A DNA stretch of 64,000 nucleotides, taken from positions 7,749 through 71,748 of the IMG/VR virus record IMGVR_UViG_3300032007_000074. One strand, written 5' to 3'. Under the pieces are notes generated by a model. It did no database searches, was not told the DNA's origin, and worked only from the letters and a program-made list of their open reading frames with translations. This DNA comes from a virus (Duplodnaviria > Caudoviricetes). Positions 7,743-62,530 of this stretch are shown piece by piece. Each line of letters begins with the position of its first letter. Position 1 is the stretch's first letter. The translations under genes and the position numbers were made by a program.

Positions 7743-7755
7743 AATGTATGCTTGT

Positions 7756-27448: not shown

Positions 27449-27462
27449 AGTTGGGCATGGAA

Positions 27463-27495
27463 TTTGCTAATAATCGCCCCTTTTTCGTATCTTTG
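27463..27495 (+). promoter_or_regulatory. Bacteroidota promoter for terminase-portal
   Basis: TTTG-21 nt-TATCTTTG, 6 nt before the ATG at 27502. Confidence 0.7.
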
Positions 27496-27501
27496 CGGTG
27501 T

Positions 27502-30288
27502 ATGTTTCGACTCGTAAACAAAGACGCAAACTTTCCTCCGCTGTACAAACATGTGGAAAGAAAACTCCCGACCGCAAAGGACAAAGGTTGGGATAAAGTC
27601 GGCGACTTCACTTTGCGAGAGAAGGTAGACTTCATTCCACAGCCAGGCTTGCAAGAAAATTTCCTTCAGTGCGATAGCAACATCATCTTTCTTTGCGGCG
27701 CCGCAACTATGGGGAAGGAGCAGCCTTATGACGCGGATGTACTTACTCCGTCCGGATTTGTTAAGATGGGGAGCATATCAGTGGGCGATACAATTTGTGG
27801 TGCAGATGGAAAGCCGCAGCGAGTAACGGCTATATTCGAGCAGGGCATAAAAGATGTCTATCGCTTTAATATGATTGACGGTGGAATTGTGGAGTCTGGA
27901 CTTGAACATTTATGGTATGTAAGGAAGTCTCTGGTTAAGAAAAAATCGACATGGTCCGTAGAAACGACAAAAGACATCATTAAATCTTTTGACGAAAGAG
28001 CGGATAAATACGGCGCGGTGAGAAAGATTAGCTTCCCAACATGCGCTGCGGTACATTATGGAAAGGAAATAGTTCCGGCAATCGGACCGTATACTCTAGG
28101 TCAACTTGTTGCTGATGGTTGTCTCGTTAGTTCCCCGGTCAGGGTTTATACGGACGACGATTACTGCGTTAAAAGAATTGAGAGCGAGGGGTATAGCGTA
28201 ACAAAAATGAAAAGCGATAAATTCGGTTACACTATTCACGGACGAGATATTCTGGATGCGACAAGAACTCTTGGGATTTTTGGACACAAGGCGGGTTCTA
28301 AATCACTTCCAGAAGAGTGTTTTTTCTATAGCGTTTCAGATAGGCTTTCTCTTCTTAACGGCTTGCTCGATGCGGATGGCCACTGCATGCGCAAAACGGG
28401 AAGTGTCGAATACTGTTCAATCAGCAAACAACTAGCAAAAGATGTTCAGCGCCTATGTAGGGGACTCGGATATGTCGCCAGAATTATCCAAAAGAAAACA
28501 TCTTGTGTCTACAACGGAGAAAAGAAGTATAGTGTCGCTTATAGGGTGAGAATTATATCAAATGATGCCTCAGAACTATTTGGCCTTGAAAGAAAAAAAG
28601 CGAATGCCGGAAGGTGCAAGGTCGGAACAGGATACGAGGCTTTACGCCACTTGGAATCGTATGAGTATGTAGGTAAAAAGAGATGCAGATGCTTACTGGT
28701 TTCTAACGACGATCATTTGTACGTAACGAATGATTTCATTGTTACGCACAATACATACGCGATGCTCATGAAGTTCCTTTACGGAATGGACAAGCCTGGT
28801 TTTGCTGGTCGTTTTATTTCAATGAGGCTCGCTGACTCAAAGAAGGGTACATCTATTTACAGAGATGCGATGGAGCTGCTTGGAAACTTTGCAGACTGCG
28901 AGGTAAACTCGAGCGATTCGCCGACATTCGCATGGCCCAAATACAATTCTGCAGTCCAGCTTATTCACAGCAACTTTAATGTCGAAAACCCGACCGAGTG
29001 GGAAGATTTCAAGGAACTCGCGAAGAAAAACCAGGCAAGCCTTATCCAAGTCGACGAAGGAACAGCTATGACATTCAAGATGTTTACTTATTGGATGTCG
29101 CGAAACAGAGACTCATCCGGTATGAAGCCGCAGATAGCGATGTCATTTAACCCGGAGTTTACGCATTGGACAACAGCTCTCCTCCTACTTGCCGGCTATA
29201 TCAATCCCGACACATATTACATCTATCCGGACATGAATGGAGTAACAAAGTACATGTATTTTGCCGGGGACGATGTTAACGACGTGATTGTAGGCGACAC
29301 TCCGGAAGAGGTCGCAAAGGCAGCTGGAATCAAGCTTTCGGATGCAGACCGTGCCGCAGGACTCACGGAAACCGACATGGTAAAGTCCTTCACAATGTTT
29401 ACCGGAGAGGCCGCAGACAACAGAAAGCTTGTCGCTGCGACCGGAGGTGGATCTGTCGCAAACCTCCATGCTGTAGGTAAGACACAGAGGAATGTGCTGA
29501 AGGGAGCGTACTTTGGTCCAGTAGAGAATGAGCGCTCGTCCATTACGAAGCAAATGATTCTCGACTTCACGAGCAACCCTATCAACGACGACGAGAACAT
29601 GTACGCAACGATGGATATCTCCGGGTCCGCGTCGTCGAAAAAACCAGATGCTTGTCAAATGGTAATATGGAAAGGGCTTCGATGGGTCGCTATTGAAACA
29701 TATGTTGGAGACATGAAGGCTATCGTCCCATGGATTGAGGGGACTCTAGCAAAATATGGAGTTCCACTGAAGAATTTTGCGTTTGATGCCACAGGAATGG
29801 GTTTCTTCCTCAAGGACTACATTAACGCGAACCCGGTAACGGCCAACAAGACCGCCATGCAGGAATATGACGAAAACGGAAACCCCGTTACTTTTGAACA
29901 ATATTTCAACCTTCGTAGCCAGCTTATGGGAAAGATGGCCGTCTTGATTGAGACCGGACAGATAAGCACAAGCATGGATTTGAGCGATAAAATTCCTTAT
30001 GGAAAGAACGGAGAACTACGAAGCCTCAGAGATATCCTATTTGATGGTATTGACTTGTTTGTAACAACCACAAAAAACAAGCGTATCTACTATCTTTCAA
30101 AAGACGAGTATAAGGCACGGCACCAAAAGAATTCCCCGGACTTGTGGGATACGATATGCCTTCGATCCTTATGGGAGCTCGACGCCCGTCCCAAAAAGCA
30201 GCCGGCCCCAGAGGTGCCAGATGACGCATACGATGAGTTGTTTATAGACTATTCTGGCGGACGCGCTGGTAATGTAGTCTGGGTATAA
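27502..30288 (+). CDS. terL: Terminase large subunit (intein-containing)
   Basis: Walker A GAATMGK/T is split by the intein; Walker B LIQVDE; RNase H-like C-terminal domain (TMDISG, FDATG, SPDLWD). Confidence 0.85.
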   Translation: MFRLVNKDANFPPLYKHVERKLPTAKDKGWDKVGDFTLREKVDFIPQPGLQENFLQCDSNIIFLCGAATMGKEQPYDADVLTPSGFVKMGSISVGDTICGADGKPQRVTAIFEQGIKDVYRFNMIDGGIVESGLEHLWYVRKSLVKKKSTWSVETTKDIIKSFDERADKYGAVRKISFPTCAAVHYGKEIVPAIGPYTLGQLVADGCLVSSPVRVYTDDDYCVKRIESEGYSVTKMKSDKFGYTIHGRDILDATRTLGIFGHKAGSKSLPEECFFYSVSDRLSLLNGLLDADGHCMRKTGSVEYCSISKQLAKDVQRLCRGLGYVARIIQKKTSCVYNGEKKYSVAYRVRIISNDASELFGLERKKANAGRCKVGTGYEALRHLESYEYVGKKRCRCLLVSNDDHLYVTNDFIVTHNTYAMLMKFLYGMDKPGFAGRFISMRLADSKKGTSIYRDAMELLGNFADCEVNSSDSPTFAWPKYNSAVQLIHSNFNVENPTEWEDFKELAKKNQASLIQVDEGTAMTFKMFTYWMSRNRDSSGMKPQIAMSFNPEFTHWTTALLLLAGYINPDTYYIYPDMNGVTKYMYFAGDDVNDVIVGDTPEEVAKAAGIKLSDADRAAGLTETDMVKSFTMFTGEAADNRKLVAATGGGSVANLHAVGKTQRNVLKGAYFGPVENERSSITKQMILDFTSNPINDDENMYATMDISGSASSKKPDACQMVIWKGLRWVAIETYVGDMKAIVPWIEGTLAKYGVPLKNFAFDATGMGFFLKDYINANPVTANKTAMQEYDENGNPVTFEQYFNLRSQLMGKMAVLIETGQISTSMDLSDKIPYGKNGELRSLRDILFDGIDLFVTTTKNKRIYYLSKDEYKARHQKNSPDLWDTICLRSLWELDARPKKQPAPEVPDDAYDELFIDYSGGRAGNVVWV
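27718..28752 (+). mobile_element. Class 3-type intein (345 aa) with LAGLIDADG homing endonuclease
   Basis: Begins EQPYDADVLTPSG and ends HLYVTNDFIVTHN/T; LAGLIDADG motifs LGQLVADG and LNGLLDADG; WCT signature (HLW, RCRCLLV, VTHN). Confidence 0.9.
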
Positions 30289-50175: not shown

Positions 50176-50468
50176 ATGTAGTTTTCATGTAGAAACTACA
50201 TAAGCAACTACATAACCACATCCCGCTGAAAATCAAGCCGGTAGACCCATTTTATGTAGTTTTATGTAGAAAATGTAGTCGATTTTCCAGGAAGTCCCTC
50301 ATATAGCCCCCTCTTCTACACCCCTACTTACTTTAATACATTATTTAATTAATACCTAACTACATATAACTACATAACATTACAATATATTATAAAAGAG
50401 AGAGTTATAGAATGTAGTTGCCGTGAAGGATGGTAAGTATTTCGTTTTCGCGCTACATCTCGCTACAT
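50176..50468. repeat. Twelve CTACAT/ATGTAG hexamers in both orientations; candidate replication origin iterons
   Basis: Copies at 50176, 50187, 50196, 50208, 50254, 50264, 50273, 50360, 50370, 50412, 50453 and 50463, around an AT-rich core. Confidence 0.7.
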
Positions 50469-50714
50469 AAATCAAAAGCGCACCGGCTTAACAAAAATCG
50501 TGCTACGGGCTCCGTCTCAGAAAAAAAATAAAAAAAATTTCAGAATCGCACCCTGGTTTCGGTCCGCGGGTGGCGTCTCACACCTTGATACCCTTTTGAT
50601 TTTTAAGCGCTTACAGACAAAAAACGGTCGTTTGCTCCTTGAAAGTAACAAAAATGTTACAAAAGGGGCCTTTTTAAAATTTTTTAAAAACTCAGGGGCC
50701 CAGGGCGCCCAGGT

Positions 50715-50767
50715 CTGCCATTTTGTCAGTTGTCTGCCAATTTGTCAGTTGACCTGACATTTTGTCA
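50715..50767. promoter_or_regulatory. Three tandem quasi-palindromic operator-like repeats
   Basis: CTGCCATTTTGTCAGTTG, CTGCCAATTTGTCAGTTG and CTGACATTTTGTCA at 19-20 bp spacing. Confidence 0.55.
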
Positions 50768-51021
50768 TATTTTCGGATCCGCTGGCGTTACTTAACATAA
50801 TATTTTTTGTGTAACAAATACGGCGCTGGGGATTTTTCGCGTATATAGAGGTACGCACGCGTATATATGCTAAATGCTTGATAGTCAGCGTGTTATGGTT
50901 TTTGGTGGGATCCCTGCAATTTTTTTCGCTTGTAACTCATTGAAAATCAATAAGTTATAAACTTTGCGTGTTTTGTGGTGTAATTTTGCGTAATTTAGGC
51001 GTAAATTGCCTAAAATTGCCG

Positions 51022-51029
51022 TAACTTTG
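51022..51029 (+). promoter_or_regulatory. -7 element TAACTTTG of the early operon
   Basis: Consensus match upstream of the first plus-strand early gene. Confidence 0.6.
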
Positions 51030-51092
51030 CAACAGAAACAAGGACGAAAGATAAAGCAAACATATTTTAAAAACCTTTAAAAAATTAGTATC

Positions 51093-51593
51093 ATGAAACA
51101 GTCTGAAATTAACGCCGCCGCCGTCAAAGTTTTTGAGGCTTGTAGTACATGTAAAGCCGCCGCCGCCGAATACGGCAAACTTTCTGAAATGTACGGGAAA
51201 GAAAACGCCGCCGCAATCATTAAAGCGGCAAAGGGATTAATTAACGCCGATAAGGCCGAAAACCGGAACGAGAGGAACGGCGTAAAAAATTGGTTTTCCG
51301 ATTTTAATAAAATCGGCCTCCCTATTTTTGCCGCTTATTGTAAGGACGACAAAAAGGCCGGAAAAGTTGCCGCCGCTTTTAATAACGATTTAACGGCTTT
51401 TATTTCAGCTTGGTATCCGTGCACGGACGAAAACGGACGGCCTGCAAAGGTTGTCAAGGGTACTGCAAAGTTGGTTCGTATCAATGCCGCCGCCGTCCGT
51501 ACTATTTTAAGGGCCTGTTTTGATAATATCGTATTATCCCGTATTGGAAGGGACAAACACAATACGGTGACAATTGAAAACGCTGCAGAATAA
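51093..51593 (+). CDS. Hypothetical early protein
   Basis: 166 aa, Ala/Lys-rich, distinct codon usage (GCC GCC runs). Confidence 0.7.
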   Translation: MKQSEINAAAVKVFEACSTCKAAAAEYGKLSEMYGKENAAAIIKAAKGLINADKAENRNERNGVKNWFSDFNKIGLPIFAAYCKDDKKAGKVAAAFNNDLTAFISAWYPCTDENGRPAKVVKGTAKLVRINAAAVRTILRACFDNIVLSRIGRDKHNTVTIENAAE

Positions 51594-53580: not shown

Positions 53581-54018
53581 ATGTACGAGTATGTAGTAAT
53601 CAGGCGCGAGCTGCACGATAGCGCGGAGCCTGTAAAGGTGCTGACCGCAACGGACGTGGTCAATTATGTATTGAAGAACTGCCAGAGCCGCGAGGAAATG
53701 TGGAAGGAGATGGCGTGGGTACTGGTGTTGCATGGCGGGAGAATAACCGGCCACTACTGCCTCAGTGTCGGCAGCACGAAGGCGACCGGATTCGACGCGA
53801 AGGAGGTTGCGAAGGTAGCGATTGACCAGCTTGCCGATGCGGTGATCCTGGTGCATAACCACCCGAGCGGAAGTTGCCTGCCGAGTCAGGCTGACATTGC
53901 AGCTACAGATTCAGTAAGGAAGGCCCTACGCCTTTTTGACATCGACCTTCTGGACCATGTGGTTATCGGAACGGACGAACATTTCAGTTTCGCAATAGAT
54001 GAAAAAGTAAAGGACTAA
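53581..54018 (+). CDS. radC: RadC-like JAB/MPN domain protein
   Basis: E...ILVHNHPSG..PSQAD and LLDHVVIG motifs intact. Confidence 0.85.
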   Translation: MYEYVVIRRELHDSAEPVKVLTATDVVNYVLKNCQSREEMWKEMAWVLVLHGGRITGHYCLSVGSTKATGFDAKEVAKVAIDQLADAVILVHNHPSGSCLPSQADIAATDSVRKALRLFDIDLLDHVVIGTDEHFSFAIDEKVKD

Positions 54019-54022
54019 CATT

Positions 54023-55489
54023 ATGAGAACGACAAACACCATTAAGTTGCAGGGCGTGGACTACGTGCCTGTGAAAGTAGAATGTGAAATCACTCCGGGT
54101 ATCGGCATCCACCTGGTTGGACTGGCCGACGAGGCGGTGAAGTGCTCACTGCTGCGGACAGTAACGGCCATGCAGGCTTGCGGATATCGTATCCCTGGCA
54201 AGAAGATTGTTATCAACCTGGCGCCGGCCGACTTGAACAAGAGCGGTAGCGGATACGATCTGGCCATAGCACTTACGACGATTGCGGAGAGCGGGCAGGC
54301 TTCGCTGGATTTCCTAGAGAGTTTTGTAGTCCTGGGCGAGCTGGCATTGGACGGACATATCCGGGCGGTGCCGGGCGTGGTGCAGGCTGTGCAGGCGGCA
54401 AAGGACCAGGGCTACGGAGTTATCGTGCCGAGGGCGAATGCGGCAGAGGTCGAGGGACTGTTCGACGACTACAAGCCGGTGTACTATGTGGACCATCTGG
54501 ACGAGGCTATTGCAGTGGTCAATACGCTGACAGGTGCGAGGGTCCCGGGAGAGGTAGACGAGCAGCCGGCGCCCGAGGGCTGGTGGGACAGGATCACCGG
54601 TCATGTCGGAGCGAAGCGAGCCCTGGAGATTGCTGCTGCAGGCGGGCATCATGTGCTGATGATGGGTGCGCCTGGGTGTTGCAGGAGTGTATTGGCGAAG
54701 GCTGTCTTGGATATCCTGCCACCGATTACGAAAGAGGAGGAGATGGAGGTCGCGAAGGTGTACAGCGTGTCCGGTAGGTTCCGACCTGTGGGACGTAGGC
54801 CGTTCCGTGCACCTCATTGCAGCGCGAGCATGGCTGCGATGCTTGGTGGCGGAGCGGGCGAGTGTGTTCTGCCCGGAGAGGTGAGCCTTGCCAATAATGG
54901 CGTTCTGTACCTGGATGAGTACAATGAGCTGCCGAGGGCCATGAAGGATGCTCTGCGGGGACCGATGGAGGACGGCAAGGTGGTAATCAGCCGGCTGAAG
55001 AGCAAGGTTGAGTATCCGGCGCGGTTCCTCATGATTGCAGGCACGAATCCTTGCCCGTGTGGATACTACGGAGAGGGCGACCGCTGCACCTGCACGAAAG
55101 GGCCGAGGGAAGCGTATCTGGCGAAGCTGTCCGGTCCTGTGTGTGATATGCTTACCATGCAGGTATGGGTTCATCCGGAAGTCGGAGGGCTGAAAGGCGA
55201 GCCTGCTACCGTAGTTGCCGAGAGAGTGGCGAAGGCGAGGGAACTGCAGATGAAGCGACAGGGCAAGCTCAATGACGAGCTGAAGGCATCAGAGCTTCCG
55301 GAACTGGGTGAGAACAGCAAGGATATGGCAGAGACGCTTATGGAGCGCATGAGCCTGAGCGCCAGGGCATACACTCGGATGCTGAAGATCGCAAGGACGA
55401 TAGCCGACCTTGATGAATGCGAGGCAGTGCTACCGCAGCACCTGGCCGAGGCTGCAAGTTACCGTTTTTTAGATAGGAGGACAATCTAA
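54023..55489 (+). CDS. comM: ComM/YifB-family (Mg-chelatase-like) AAA+ protein with degenerate ATPase motifs
   Basis: INLAPADLNKSGSGYDLAIA, GELALDG, PGEVSLANNGVLYLDE, NPCPCGY and ARTIADL motifs; Walker A reads GAPGCCRS. Confidence 0.9.
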   Translation: MRTTNTIKLQGVDYVPVKVECEITPGIGIHLVGLADEAVKCSLLRTVTAMQACGYRIPGKKIVINLAPADLNKSGSGYDLAIALTTIAESGQASLDFLESFVVLGELALDGHIRAVPGVVQAVQAAKDQGYGVIVPRANAAEVEGLFDDYKPVYYVDHLDEAIAVVNTLTGARVPGEVDEQPAPEGWWDRITGHVGAKRALEIAAAGGHHVLMMGAPGCCRSVLAKAVLDILPPITKEEEMEVAKVYSVSGRFRPVGRRPFRAPHCSASMAAMLGGGAGECVLPGEVSLANNGVLYLDEYNELPRAMKDALRGPMEDGKVVISRLKSKVEYPARFLMIAGTNPCPCGYYGEGDRCTCTKGPREAYLAKLSGPVCDMLTMQVWVHPEVGGLKGEPATVVAERVAKARELQMKRQGKLNDELKASELPELGENSKDMAETLMERMSLSARAYTRMLKIARTIADLDECEAVLPQHLAEAASYRFLDRRTI

Positions 55490-57798: not shown

Positions 57799-58527
57799 AT
57801 GGCATCACACGCAGCACTTAAAGGCGTACACATCTATGCCGAATTCAAGGACGAGACCATCATCGCGAGAGTGAAGAAGATGGTGGAGATGGCCGGCAAG
57901 GTGGATGTGTCAAATGAGCACATCCGCATCAGTTACGGAAACAGAAAGACGACCGCGATGGTCCCGAGCGTTTCGCTGATTCCTATCCACGATTGCGGGA
58001 ACTGCAAGGCGTGCAAGAACGGATGCTATGACATCCGCAATGTATGCTGCTACAAAGGTAGTCAGCAGCAGCGGGCGGTCAACAGCGCGATTCTCAAGCA
58101 GGACCGCGAACGCTTCTTCAAAGAGGTTGAGCTGCATGTCCAGTTCCACCGTTGGTTCCGCTGGTTCATCGGCGGAGACATCAAGGACTTCGACTTCTTT
58201 GGACGGGTTGTCGGCATCGCGGTGAGGACTCCTGGTTGTCAGTTCCTCTTGTTCACGAAGATGTTCGATGTGGTCAATGAGTGGCTGGATAATGTAGGCG
58301 AGCTTCCCGAGAACCTCCATGTGATCTTCTCCGATTGGCGTGGCCAGGACATGGACAACCCGCACAACATGCCAGTGAGCAGTCCGCTCTGGAAGGACGG
58401 GACGAAGGGGCCGCACTGCACCGAGAAGCAGTTCATGTGCCCTGGCAACTGCAGCGAATGCGCGATTGTCGGGTGCGGGTGCTGGAATGCGAAGAAAGGT
58501 GACACGATCTTGTTTGAAGCACACTGA
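57799..58527 (+). CDS. Gp88-like Cys-cluster (radical-SAM-related) phage protein
   Basis: CGNCKACKNGCY, FRWFIGGD, FLLFTK, NLHVIFS and CPGNCSEC motifs. Confidence 0.6.
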   Translation: MASHAALKGVHIYAEFKDETIIARVKKMVEMAGKVDVSNEHIRISYGNRKTTAMVPSVSLIPIHDCGNCKACKNGCYDIRNVCCYKGSQQQRAVNSAILKQDRERFFKEVELHVQFHRWFRWFIGGDIKDFDFFGRVVGIAVRTPGCQFLLFTKMFDVVNEWLDNVGELPENLHVIFSDWRGQDMDNPHNMPVSSPLWKDGTKGPHCTEKQFMCPGNCSECAIVGCGCWNAKKGDTILFEAH

Positions 58528-61635: not shown

Positions 61636-61771
61636 TGTTCGTAATCGTCTACATTCTCTGCGCCCTGGCTTTCATTCCAGAGGTGTTTAACGAAAAAAGA
61701 TAAGGATATGTTTCTACTGATTATGTTGGCCGCATATCTTGACGACATGCTCGCCAGACGAGACTAATACA

Positions 61772-62530
61772 ATGACTTACAGCTACATAAGATTCTCCAC
61801 AAACAAGCAGGATGATCTCCAGCAGCAGCAGGCGATAAAGGAGTGGGCCCTTCCTCGCGGCATCGTCATCGACGAATTCGTCAAGGATGAGGGCATCTCC
61901 GGCGGAGTATCTTACCGCGACAGAAACCTGTATAAGCTCGTCCAGAAGATGGGTCCAGGGGACATCCTTATCGTGTCTGAGATATCTCGTTTGGGCAGAT
62001 CCATGAGCGATCTTAACCTCCTCATTACCCAGGAACTCAAGCCGCGAAAAGTCCGCCTCGTCTGCATTAAGCTCAACCTTGACCTCGACTGCGCGAACAT
62101 CAAGGCCATTGACGAGATGTTACTATTCAGTTTCTCCTTCGCAGCGCAGCTCGAAAAGGAGCTCATTCAGTCCAGAACCCAGTCCGCCATCGACGCCCGC
62201 AAGGAGGCAATCAAGAAGGACGGAGGTTTCTTCTCCAAGACGGACCGCTGGTGTACGCACCTGGGCCGCAAGAAAGGTACGAAGGCTCCTGGAGCCGGCA
62301 GGGCATCCGGAATGGCTGCGATGAAGAAGGCCGGCGAGTGGAGAGATGGATCCGCACTGTACACGATGGTATCTGATGAGATTGCACACGGCGTCAGCCA
62401 AAAGGACATCCTTGCAAAGGCGCTCAGGCTTTACGAAAAGCACCCGTCCATCTACTGCACAAGAAACGGAAAACCGCTCTGCTGGGGAACACTTTCCAGG
62501 TGGGCGAAAGAAATTCAGATTGGGATATGA
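61772..62530 (+). CDS. Serine recombinase (resolvase/invertase family)
   Basis: YSYIRFSTNKQ (catalytic Ser), DEGISGG, VSEISRLGRS and IQSRT motifs. Confidence 0.88.
   Translation: MTYSYIRFSTNKQDDLQQQQAIKEWALPRGIVIDEFVKDEGISGGVSYRDRNLYKLVQKMGPGDILIVSEISRLGRSMSDLNLLITQELKPRKVRLVCIKLNLDLDCANIKAIDEMLLFSFSFAAQLEKELIQSRTQSAIDARKEAIKKDGGFFSKTDRWCTHLGRKKGTKAPGAGRASGMAAMKKAGEWRDGSALYTMVSDEIAHGVSQKDILAKALRLYEKHPSIYCTRNGKPLCWGTLSRWAKEIQIGI

Follow-up and report, generated by a model that had tools for sequence, protein, structure and literature searches.

The protein described here, P0001, is encoded in a 64,000-nucleotide stretch of a tailed phage genome (the window; positions 7,749 to 71,748 of the IMG/VR virus record IMGVR_UViG_3300032007_000074) and carries an eroded ATP site on the fold of ComM/YifB. 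ComM is the hexameric branch-migration helicase of natural transformation. P0001 belongs to a clade of relatives with similarly eroded ATP sites (hereafter the clade), and we think it probable that it is a maintained, mobile-element-borne pseudo-ATPase offshoot of Bacteroidota ComM, which serves as a binder and not as a motor together with the RadC-JAB protein encoded directly upstream. From its sequence, the branch-migration and helicase activity of P0001 is predicted to be lost. The features of the gene are listed below in window coordinates; Lp stands for the residue numbering of Legionella pneumophila ComM.

54023..55489, plus strand: gene of P0001, ComM/YifB fold with an eroded ATP site, 488 aa
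54023..54532, plus strand: N-terminal Lon-protease-like (ChlI) domain, residues 1-170; K40 kept, clade-specific I29, H30, L43, L44 and T48
54665..54688, plus strand: degenerate Walker A GAPGCCRS, residues 215-222; G220C and K221R, the cellular sequence being GAPGSGK[ST]
54905..54919, plus strand: Walker B LYLDE, residues 295-299; D298 and E299 kept, F296Y off the cellular consensus
55046..55093, plus strand: sensor 1 N342 and the embedded Zn ribbon C344/C346/C355/C357; all kept
55127..55159, plus strand: LSGPVCDMLTM segment, residues 369-379; Met376 at the position of Lp R381, D378 replaced by Thr
55364..55411, plus strand: lid R448 (Lp R463; classical sensor 2) and ARTIADL, residues 457-463; both kept

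The open reading frame (ORF) of P0001 is unbroken and clean under translation table 11 and its start is conserved, which ruled out an alternative genetic code or a frameshift. Three Pfam domains follow in order, all scoring well over their gathering scores: ChlI/Lon-like PF13541 (residues 19-139), Mg_chelatase AAA+ PF01078 (190-385) and Mg_chelatase_C PF13335 (393-481). With the YifB family model TIGR00368 the protein reached 429.8 bits, over the cutoff of 362.4, and belongs to the family; with NF007365, the E. coli-type YifB equivalog, it reached 359.2 bits, below the cutoff of 530, and is not an equivalog. The best solved relative was Legionella ComM 8rxd (E 7e-92, 36-37% identity). The original prediction, made from the letters of the sequence, had called P0001 a full-length, uninterrupted 488-aa homologue of ComM/YifB, and the ORF, the Pfam domains, TIGR00368 and the 8rxd match all bear this out. 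The AlphaFold2 model, for which 28 clade sequences were used, had a predicted local distance difference test (pLDDT) score of 83.7 and a predicted template modelling (pTM) score of 0.84. Its top Foldseek matches in the PDB were ComM 8rxd and 8rxt over the full length, with template modelling (TM) scores of 0.79-0.80, and the lower-ranked matches were the ComM Lon ring, Lon, MCM and BchI. The model thus shows P0001 with the complete ComM fold and domain set.

Searches of PADLOC and PHROGs placed P0001 in no defence or phage family and returned only a weak helicase match and a weak likeness to the Lon domain of BrxL. BrxL of the BREX system also combines a Lon-like domain with an MCM-like AAA+ domain, and its matches were confined to the Lon-like part of P0001 (PADLOC 23.8 bits, E 2.9e-6; TIGR02653 18.3 bits against a cutoff of 628, E 5.8e-4). 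However, the domain order of P0001 is reversed, the score lies far under the family level and there are no BREX genes nearby; P0001 is not a member of this family.

When P0001 was aligned with 8rxd, the GAPGSGKT of ComM stood against GAPGCCRS, which departs from the canonical GxxGxGK[ST] pattern. Both the position of this Walker A motif and its degeneracy had been predicted correctly, and so had the retention of the Lon-like domain, the Walker B LYLDE, the Zn site and ARTIADL. In the same alignment, PLLDRIDM of ComM corresponds to PVCDMLTM of P0001, and the arginine of the SGPLLDRID pattern is missing. The DRID arginine (Lp R381) occupies the classical finger position of the MCM/BchI type. In the cryo-electron microscopy structures of ComM, the name of arginine finger went to R463 of the lid and that of sensor 3 to R316; R381 was given only a tentative sensing role (PMC11612176). 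Both R316 and R463 are kept in P0001, as R312 and R448. The prediction that the arginine finger is lost was therefore right for the classical DRID arginine, which is M376 in P0001, and wrong for the arginine named as the finger in the structure paper (R448). P0001 also keeps R324 of the pore-loop/pre-sensor-1 hairpin (Lp R328) and K40, the counterpart of Lp K43. K46, together with K43, contacts DNA in Legionella ComM (PMC11612176), and L43 of P0001 sits at the K46 position. The four Zn-ribbon cysteines and R324 are invariant in close relatives and at least 90% conserved across the clade. Further departures of P0001 from residues conserved in cellular proteins, absent from the list of the original prediction, are Q194H, F296Y and D378T.

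A large protein search found 18 full-length relatives of P0001 at 59-85% identity, after which cellular Bacteroidales YifB followed at about 53%. All 18 have one or more catalytic lesions, which differ from protein to protein (GSCK, GSGR, GSMK, DQ, CD and DM/DH/DY); one subtype, with L001, L002 and P0007-P0012, has only the change of the Walker A lysine into arginine. For the tree, the hits of a word-indexed search and of an exhaustive search of 50%-identity clusters were combined and 264 proteins were aligned. In this FastTree approximation, for which the hits were picked by similarity to P0001 (the catalytic positions being too few to drive the ranking) and the family was sampled incompletely, P0001 fell in a single clade of 109 proteins with a support of 0.97. 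At least one lesion in ten core ATP-site positions was present in 107 of these 109, whereas 153 of the 155 proteins outside the clade were canonical at all ten, Walker A included. The sister group of the clade is cellular Bacteroidales ComM, and the clade itself is deep and diverse, with many 50%-identity clusters.

The most frequent loss in the clade is that of the R381 equivalent (70 of 109), a residue with a weighted frequency of 0.98 in cellular ComM. It is followed by the Walker A Ser/Thr (59), the second P-loop Gly, G220 (56), the sensor 1 Asn (55), the Walker B Glu (45) and Asp (33), the Walker A Lys, K221 (28), the sensor 3 Arg (18) and the lid Arg (16). Arginine takes the place of the Walker A lysine in 19 of the 28 proteins that lack it, and K or R is found there in 100 of the 109 members. 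The lesion load reaches eight of the ten core positions, and non-conservative residues occur at every catalytic position. Fitch parsimony counts at least 12-28 separate losses for each catalytic residue, and only five changes in the whole tree for the state of having any lesion. Since so few changes of state go with so many losses of single residues, the pattern fits ATP hydrolysis having been given up about once near the base of the clade, after which the other active-site positions would have drifted independently.

We also made an unbiased comparison, in the clade, of the retention of all 91 alignment columns with a conservation of 90% or higher in cellular ComM. The most relaxed columns almost all belong to the nucleotide site (Q194, R376, F296, D378, N342, E302, G220, E299, S370, D298 and K221). 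On the other side, 52 of the 91 columns are still at least 90% conserved in the clade, including the four Zn cysteines, R324, the Lon core and residues of the lid. The predefined ATP-site columns were retained at 0.65 vs 0.88 for the other conserved columns (Mann-Whitney p = 2e-4). Residues conserved specifically in the clade are G28, I29, H30, L43, L44, T48, L325, R362 and F482.

Purifying selection acts on each of the three domains of the ComM-like gene. Pairwise ratios of nonsynonymous to synonymous substitution rates (dN/dS, Nei-Gojobori) among seven copies (the window, L001, L002, L003, L071, L151 and L152) were 0.16-0.27 at dS 0.46-1.5, and cellular Bacteroidales comM, used as the control at similar dS, gave 0.13-0.17. 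The corresponding ratio of proportions of differences (pN/pS) was 0.30 in the Lon-like domain, 0.28 in the AAA+ domain and 0.41 in the lid, and pN was lowest in the Lon-like domain. The copies agree in their start (MRTTNT...) and in length; all are full length and free of stop codons and frameshifts. A degenerate nucleotide site under purifying selection is one of the traits of BchD-like pseudo-AAA+ paralogues, which act with an active paralogue, and P0001 shows this trait. The original prediction would have lost its ground with intact motifs in related phage copies; in all of the 18 nearest full-length relatives the site is at least partly degenerate. Its premise that the gene is not decaying, and the check it had named, recurrent loss of these residues with low dN/dS elsewhere, agree with the lesions of the clade and with the ratios given above.

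We scanned further collections for such copies. The species-representative genomes retrieved from GTDB gave 80 copies of cellular ComM, of which 79 were canonical, and contained no member of the clade. A scan of IMG/VR with the clade alignment gave, L001 aside, mostly distant lineages or partial comM genes at the edges of contigs and prophages; both lie outside the clade, and the partial genes reflect comM as an attachment site. The best tblastn matches in INPHARED, the 'Bacteriophage sp.' records H3, H5 and H11, encode fully canonical ComM without RadC, and we set them aside since they are 'UNVERIFIED', unannotated contigs that are uninformative on phage-borne copies. Separately, several IMG/VR proteins at 29-39% identity to P0001 (L010, L017, L023, L033, L037, L043 and L049/L050) have substitutions at ATP-site positions, among them the R381 equivalent, sensor 3 and Walker B. 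By these alignments, ATP-site erosion in virus-borne ComM may reach beyond the clade, with alignment error or contamination by host flanks as possible sources of the signal.

The second gene of interest lies directly in front of the ComM-like gene.

53581..54018, plus strand: RadC-like JAB-domain gene, 145 aa, HNHPSG...PSQxD metal motif intact; Pfam PF04002 E 3.3e-30, phrog_10276 'DNA repair protein'

RadC is a widespread competence-regulon protein for which we know of no established function. Its stop codon in the phage stands 4 nt ahead of the ComM-like start (54018 to 54023), and the JAB metal motif is invariant in seven orthologues. In syntenic sister phages of 71-77 kb, RadC either overlaps the ComM-like gene by 4 bp or abuts it with a small gap. 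We scored this linkage with a hidden Markov model of RadC made from these loci, taking 80 metagenomic loci and 79 from named GTDB genomes as the canonical set. RadC was found directly upstream (within 100 bp) in 9 of 26 degenerate loci and in 0 of 159 canonical ones (Fisher p = 5e-9).

Wherever the context could be read, members of the clade belonged to phages and conjugative elements of Bacteroidota. Among the more distant members, one comes from a phage that encodes an SPP1-type portal and Mu-F, and others lie in conjugative elements with a relaxase, a T4 coupling protein, PcfJ/PcfK and DUF4121. Even one of the two motif-intact members sits in a mobile-element-like run of small ORFs. The recurrent neighbours are SSB, ArdC-N with MPTase-PolyVal, and RadC, and an endolysin is found among the context genes. 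The contigs of L004, L005 and P0029 have two or three separate SSB genes as well as ArdC-N/MPTase-PolyVal within a few kb of the ComM-like gene. Judged by this gene content, RadC, the ComM-like gene, SSB and ArdC look like a recurring 'incoming ssDNA kit' (ssDNA, single-stranded DNA).

If P0001 is a binder and not a motor, it would still assemble on DNA, possibly in a nucleotide-bound and non-hydrolysing form, because nearly all members have either K or R where the Walker A lysine stands and nucleotide binding suffices for the ComM ring. ATP, ADP or AMP-PNP (adenylyl-imidodiphosphate) is each enough for the ComM hexamer, and hydrolysis is required for unwinding (PMC6158740). Such an assembly would be unable to translocate and, judging from the position of the gene, would act early after the entry of the element. 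It would form a static DNA- or junction-binding platform that places RadC on the DNA of the element or of recombination intermediates, and it would compete with the branch migration driven by host ComM, DprA and RecA and not carry it out. Selection could favour it because it protects or processes the DNA of the element, or because it interferes with the host pathway.

Some of our observations weigh against this picture. P0001 keeps the Walker B DE, the sensor 1 N and both trans-acting arginines of the structure paper (R312 and R448), so weak residual activity is possible. Conversely, K-to-R together with G-to-C might abolish nucleotide binding altogether. The ComM K224A mutant is non-functional in vivo and loses single-stranded DNA binding, helicase activity and branch migration (PMC6158740), and by analogy with it, a P0001 that has lost nucleotide binding would be weakened in DNA binding and ring assembly, which would undercut a static ring. 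RadC is not adjacent in 17 of the 26 degenerate loci, several of which are outside the clade, and it is thus not an obligate partner.

Three other explanations have to be weighed. The gene might be a recently captured comM that drifts toward a pseudogene, with the motif losses as noise, and the heterogeneity of the lesions among relatives would suit such decay. However, the dN/dS of the seven copies and their full-length conservation, with an intact start and neither stops nor frameshifts, effectively rule the pseudogene out, and the depth of the clade and the 52 retained columns point the same way; we regard decay as extremely improbable. Alternatively, the substitutions could be tolerated and P0001 could be an active, non-canonical ATPase that serves the element as its own branch-migration or replication-restart helicase. 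This would agree with the retained Walker B, sensor 1, R312 and R448, with the strong purifying selection on the AAA+ domain and with the general knowledge that arginine partly replaces the Walker A lysine in some P-loop proteins. Nevertheless, the clade has lesions at up to eight of ten core positions, with non-conservative residues at each catalytic one, and its relaxation is aimed specifically at the ATP site. The Cys, Glu, Asp or Pro found at the second P-loop glycine is, as generally known, incompatible with canonical phosphate binding, and K224A leaves ComM dead in vivo and in vitro (PMC6158740). An active helicase thus appears quite unlikely to us.

The third explanation is a dominant-negative one, which we rate as possible and rather unlikely. 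A hydrolysis-dead subunit would enter the hexamers of host ComM, or titrate a partner such as the winged-helix domain of DprA, and block branch migration; the purpose would be to stop transformation-mediated curing or recombination directed against the element. In favour of it, the clade is sister to host-type Bacteroidales ComM at about 53% identity, the fold and the lid domain are conserved, and the combination of cis (Walker A/B) and trans (Arg) lesions is of the classic poison-subunit type. DprA recruits ComM via the C-terminal Mg-chelatase domain (bioRxiv 10.1101/2024.10.21.619469), and mobile elements attack comM by insertion and through the small RNA (sRNA) RocRp, which silences comM and radC (PMC12378983). 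Extended to the clade as a whole, the sequences make it conceivable that phages and conjugative elements of Bacteroidota use a hydrolysis-dead ComM, in some cases with RadC, to jam the branch migration by ComM and DprA, a proposal that we put forward tentatively; the jamming would go through poisoned hetero-hexamers or through a decoy for DprA or junctions, a route that we likewise hold to be doubtful. A poison subunit leaves the specific, translationally coupled RadC unexplained, and the ring-forming Lon-like domain has the clade-specific I29, H30, L43, L44 and T48, unlike host ComM. Moreover, the carrier is a 71.7-kb tailed phage and no large integrase was found in the window, where a 263-aa resolvase is the only recombinase; for such an apparently non-integrating phage, a block of chromosomal curing would bring little advantage. 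Rumen Bacteroidales are, as far as is generally known, not established as naturally transformable. The RadC coupling, the diverged Lon surface and the apparent non-integrating lifestyle make the dominant-negative explanation less economical as the sole one.

We compared P0001, read as a pseudo-ATPase binder, with known systems. Legionella pneumophila ComM (8rxd/8rxt/8rxs) has the same architecture, with a Lon-like N domain, an MCM/Mg-chelatase-type AAA+ domain with a Zn ribbon and a Mg-chelatase C lid, and the two proteins share the pore-loop Arg, one Lon-domain DNA-contact Lys, the Zn ribbon, sensor 3 and the lid Arg. They differ in that P0001 has the Walker A Gly/Lys and the DRID Arg replaced and its whole clade has the ATP site eroded. 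The P0001 clade also resides on phages and conjugative elements and not in chromosomal core genomes, it is RadC-coupled, and P0001 has a clade-specific Leu-Leu in the Lon DNA-contact helix that holds Lp K46. BchD/ChlD of Mg-chelatase belongs to the same AAA+ subgroup and is generally known as a degenerate-site paralogue kept for structure or binding. However, BchD is a cellular, obligate partner of the active BchI/ChlI within one enzyme, whereas P0001 is borne by a mobile element and is at most a putative partner of the active host ComM.

Mobile elements that act against competence share with P0001 the pathway, the logic of element versus host recombination and the recurring pairing of comM with radC. 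Unlike P0001, they use disruption in cis (AbaR islands, prophages, and integrative and conjugative elements inserted in comM) or RNA silencing. The plasmid sRNA RocRp silences comM, radC, comEA, comEC and comF (PMC12378983), and the 2025 review of such anti-competence mechanisms lists no element-encoded ComM homologue (PMC12378983). The loci of P0001 and its relatives also resemble the 'establishment' genes RadC, SSB, ArdC-N and MPTase in their neighbourhood and in their presumed early timing after DNA entry (PMC5512222). The polyvalent-protein survey of Iyer et al. 2017 covers RadC, ArdC and SSB and never mentions ComM, YifB or Mg-chelatase-like domains (PMC5512222), and a ComM-like member of the 'establishment' set appears to be unrecorded. 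Our literature searches found no prior description of a pseudo-ATPase ComM on mobile elements, and no family in PHROGs matched.

ComM is a recombination motor that has been understood only recently. The clade provides a natural separation-of-function set for it, which points out the surfaces that matter without the motor, and for the first time ties RadC to ComM by strong genomic evidence. It is also a testable candidate for a protein-level means by which phages and conjugative elements of gut and rumen Bacteroidota counter or hijack the recombination of their hosts. If the jamming proposal were true, P0001 would be the first protein to inhibit transformation and recombination at the post-synaptic stage, and RadC would be tied functionally to ComM. 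If P0001 were merely a structural helper for the element's own DNA, it would still be a clear pseudoenzyme in a family with none recorded.

The virus record has 71.7 kb and is 97% complete by CheckV; the window covers most of it and contains a single ComM-like gene. Besides the genes described so far, the window encodes a tape-measure protein, a large terminase, a portal, a helicase, a primase and a TnpB-type transposase. The GC skew flips near 50 kb, and the ComM-like gene lies about 3 kb into a rightward block of many small same-strand ORFs. The features of this block are as follows.

50200..51400, no strand: divergent intergenic switch region with the GC skew flip, from the composition profile; TAnnTTTG boxes at 50981, 51022 and 51323 (plus strand)
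57799-58527, plus strand: GP88-family protein (PF17338), conserved in every sister phage at a few kb downstream from the RadC/ComM-like pair
61739-62530, plus strand: small serine recombinase of the resolvase type, 263 aa (PF00239), with homologues in the same position in L003 and L151
62691-63497, plus strand: pentapeptide repeats with a C-terminal DUF5758, 268 aa, by Pfam; several PHROGs of unknown function

From the sequence profile we infer that 50200..51400 is the putative promoter region of the rightward early-type block with RadC and the ComM-like gene. No plus-strand TAnnTTTG box follows from 51323 to 58 kb, and the number of boxes in the window is not above chance. A sigma-70 promoter scan gave nothing above the shuffled expectation, with a model ill-suited to Bacteroidota. 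The original prediction had the protein made early in infection; the gene does sit in an early-type block of small same-strand ORFs, and early expression is predicted from this position. Downstream of the ComM-like gene come GP88, the small resolvase and the pentapeptide-repeat protein. Since pentapeptide-repeat proteins are often DNA mimics, the last of these, which belongs to the same early-type block, is by analogy a candidate gene against restriction or other defences.

Two more genes lie outside this block.

27451-30288, plus strand: large terminase, unusually long with 945 aa
46212-47408, minus strand: TnpB/IS200-IS605-type transposase homologue (phrog_506, E 1.8e-122), inside the replication module

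The N-terminal P-loop part of the terminase matches primase, DnaC-like and helicase PHROGs, and the protein may therefore be a fusion or contain an insertion.

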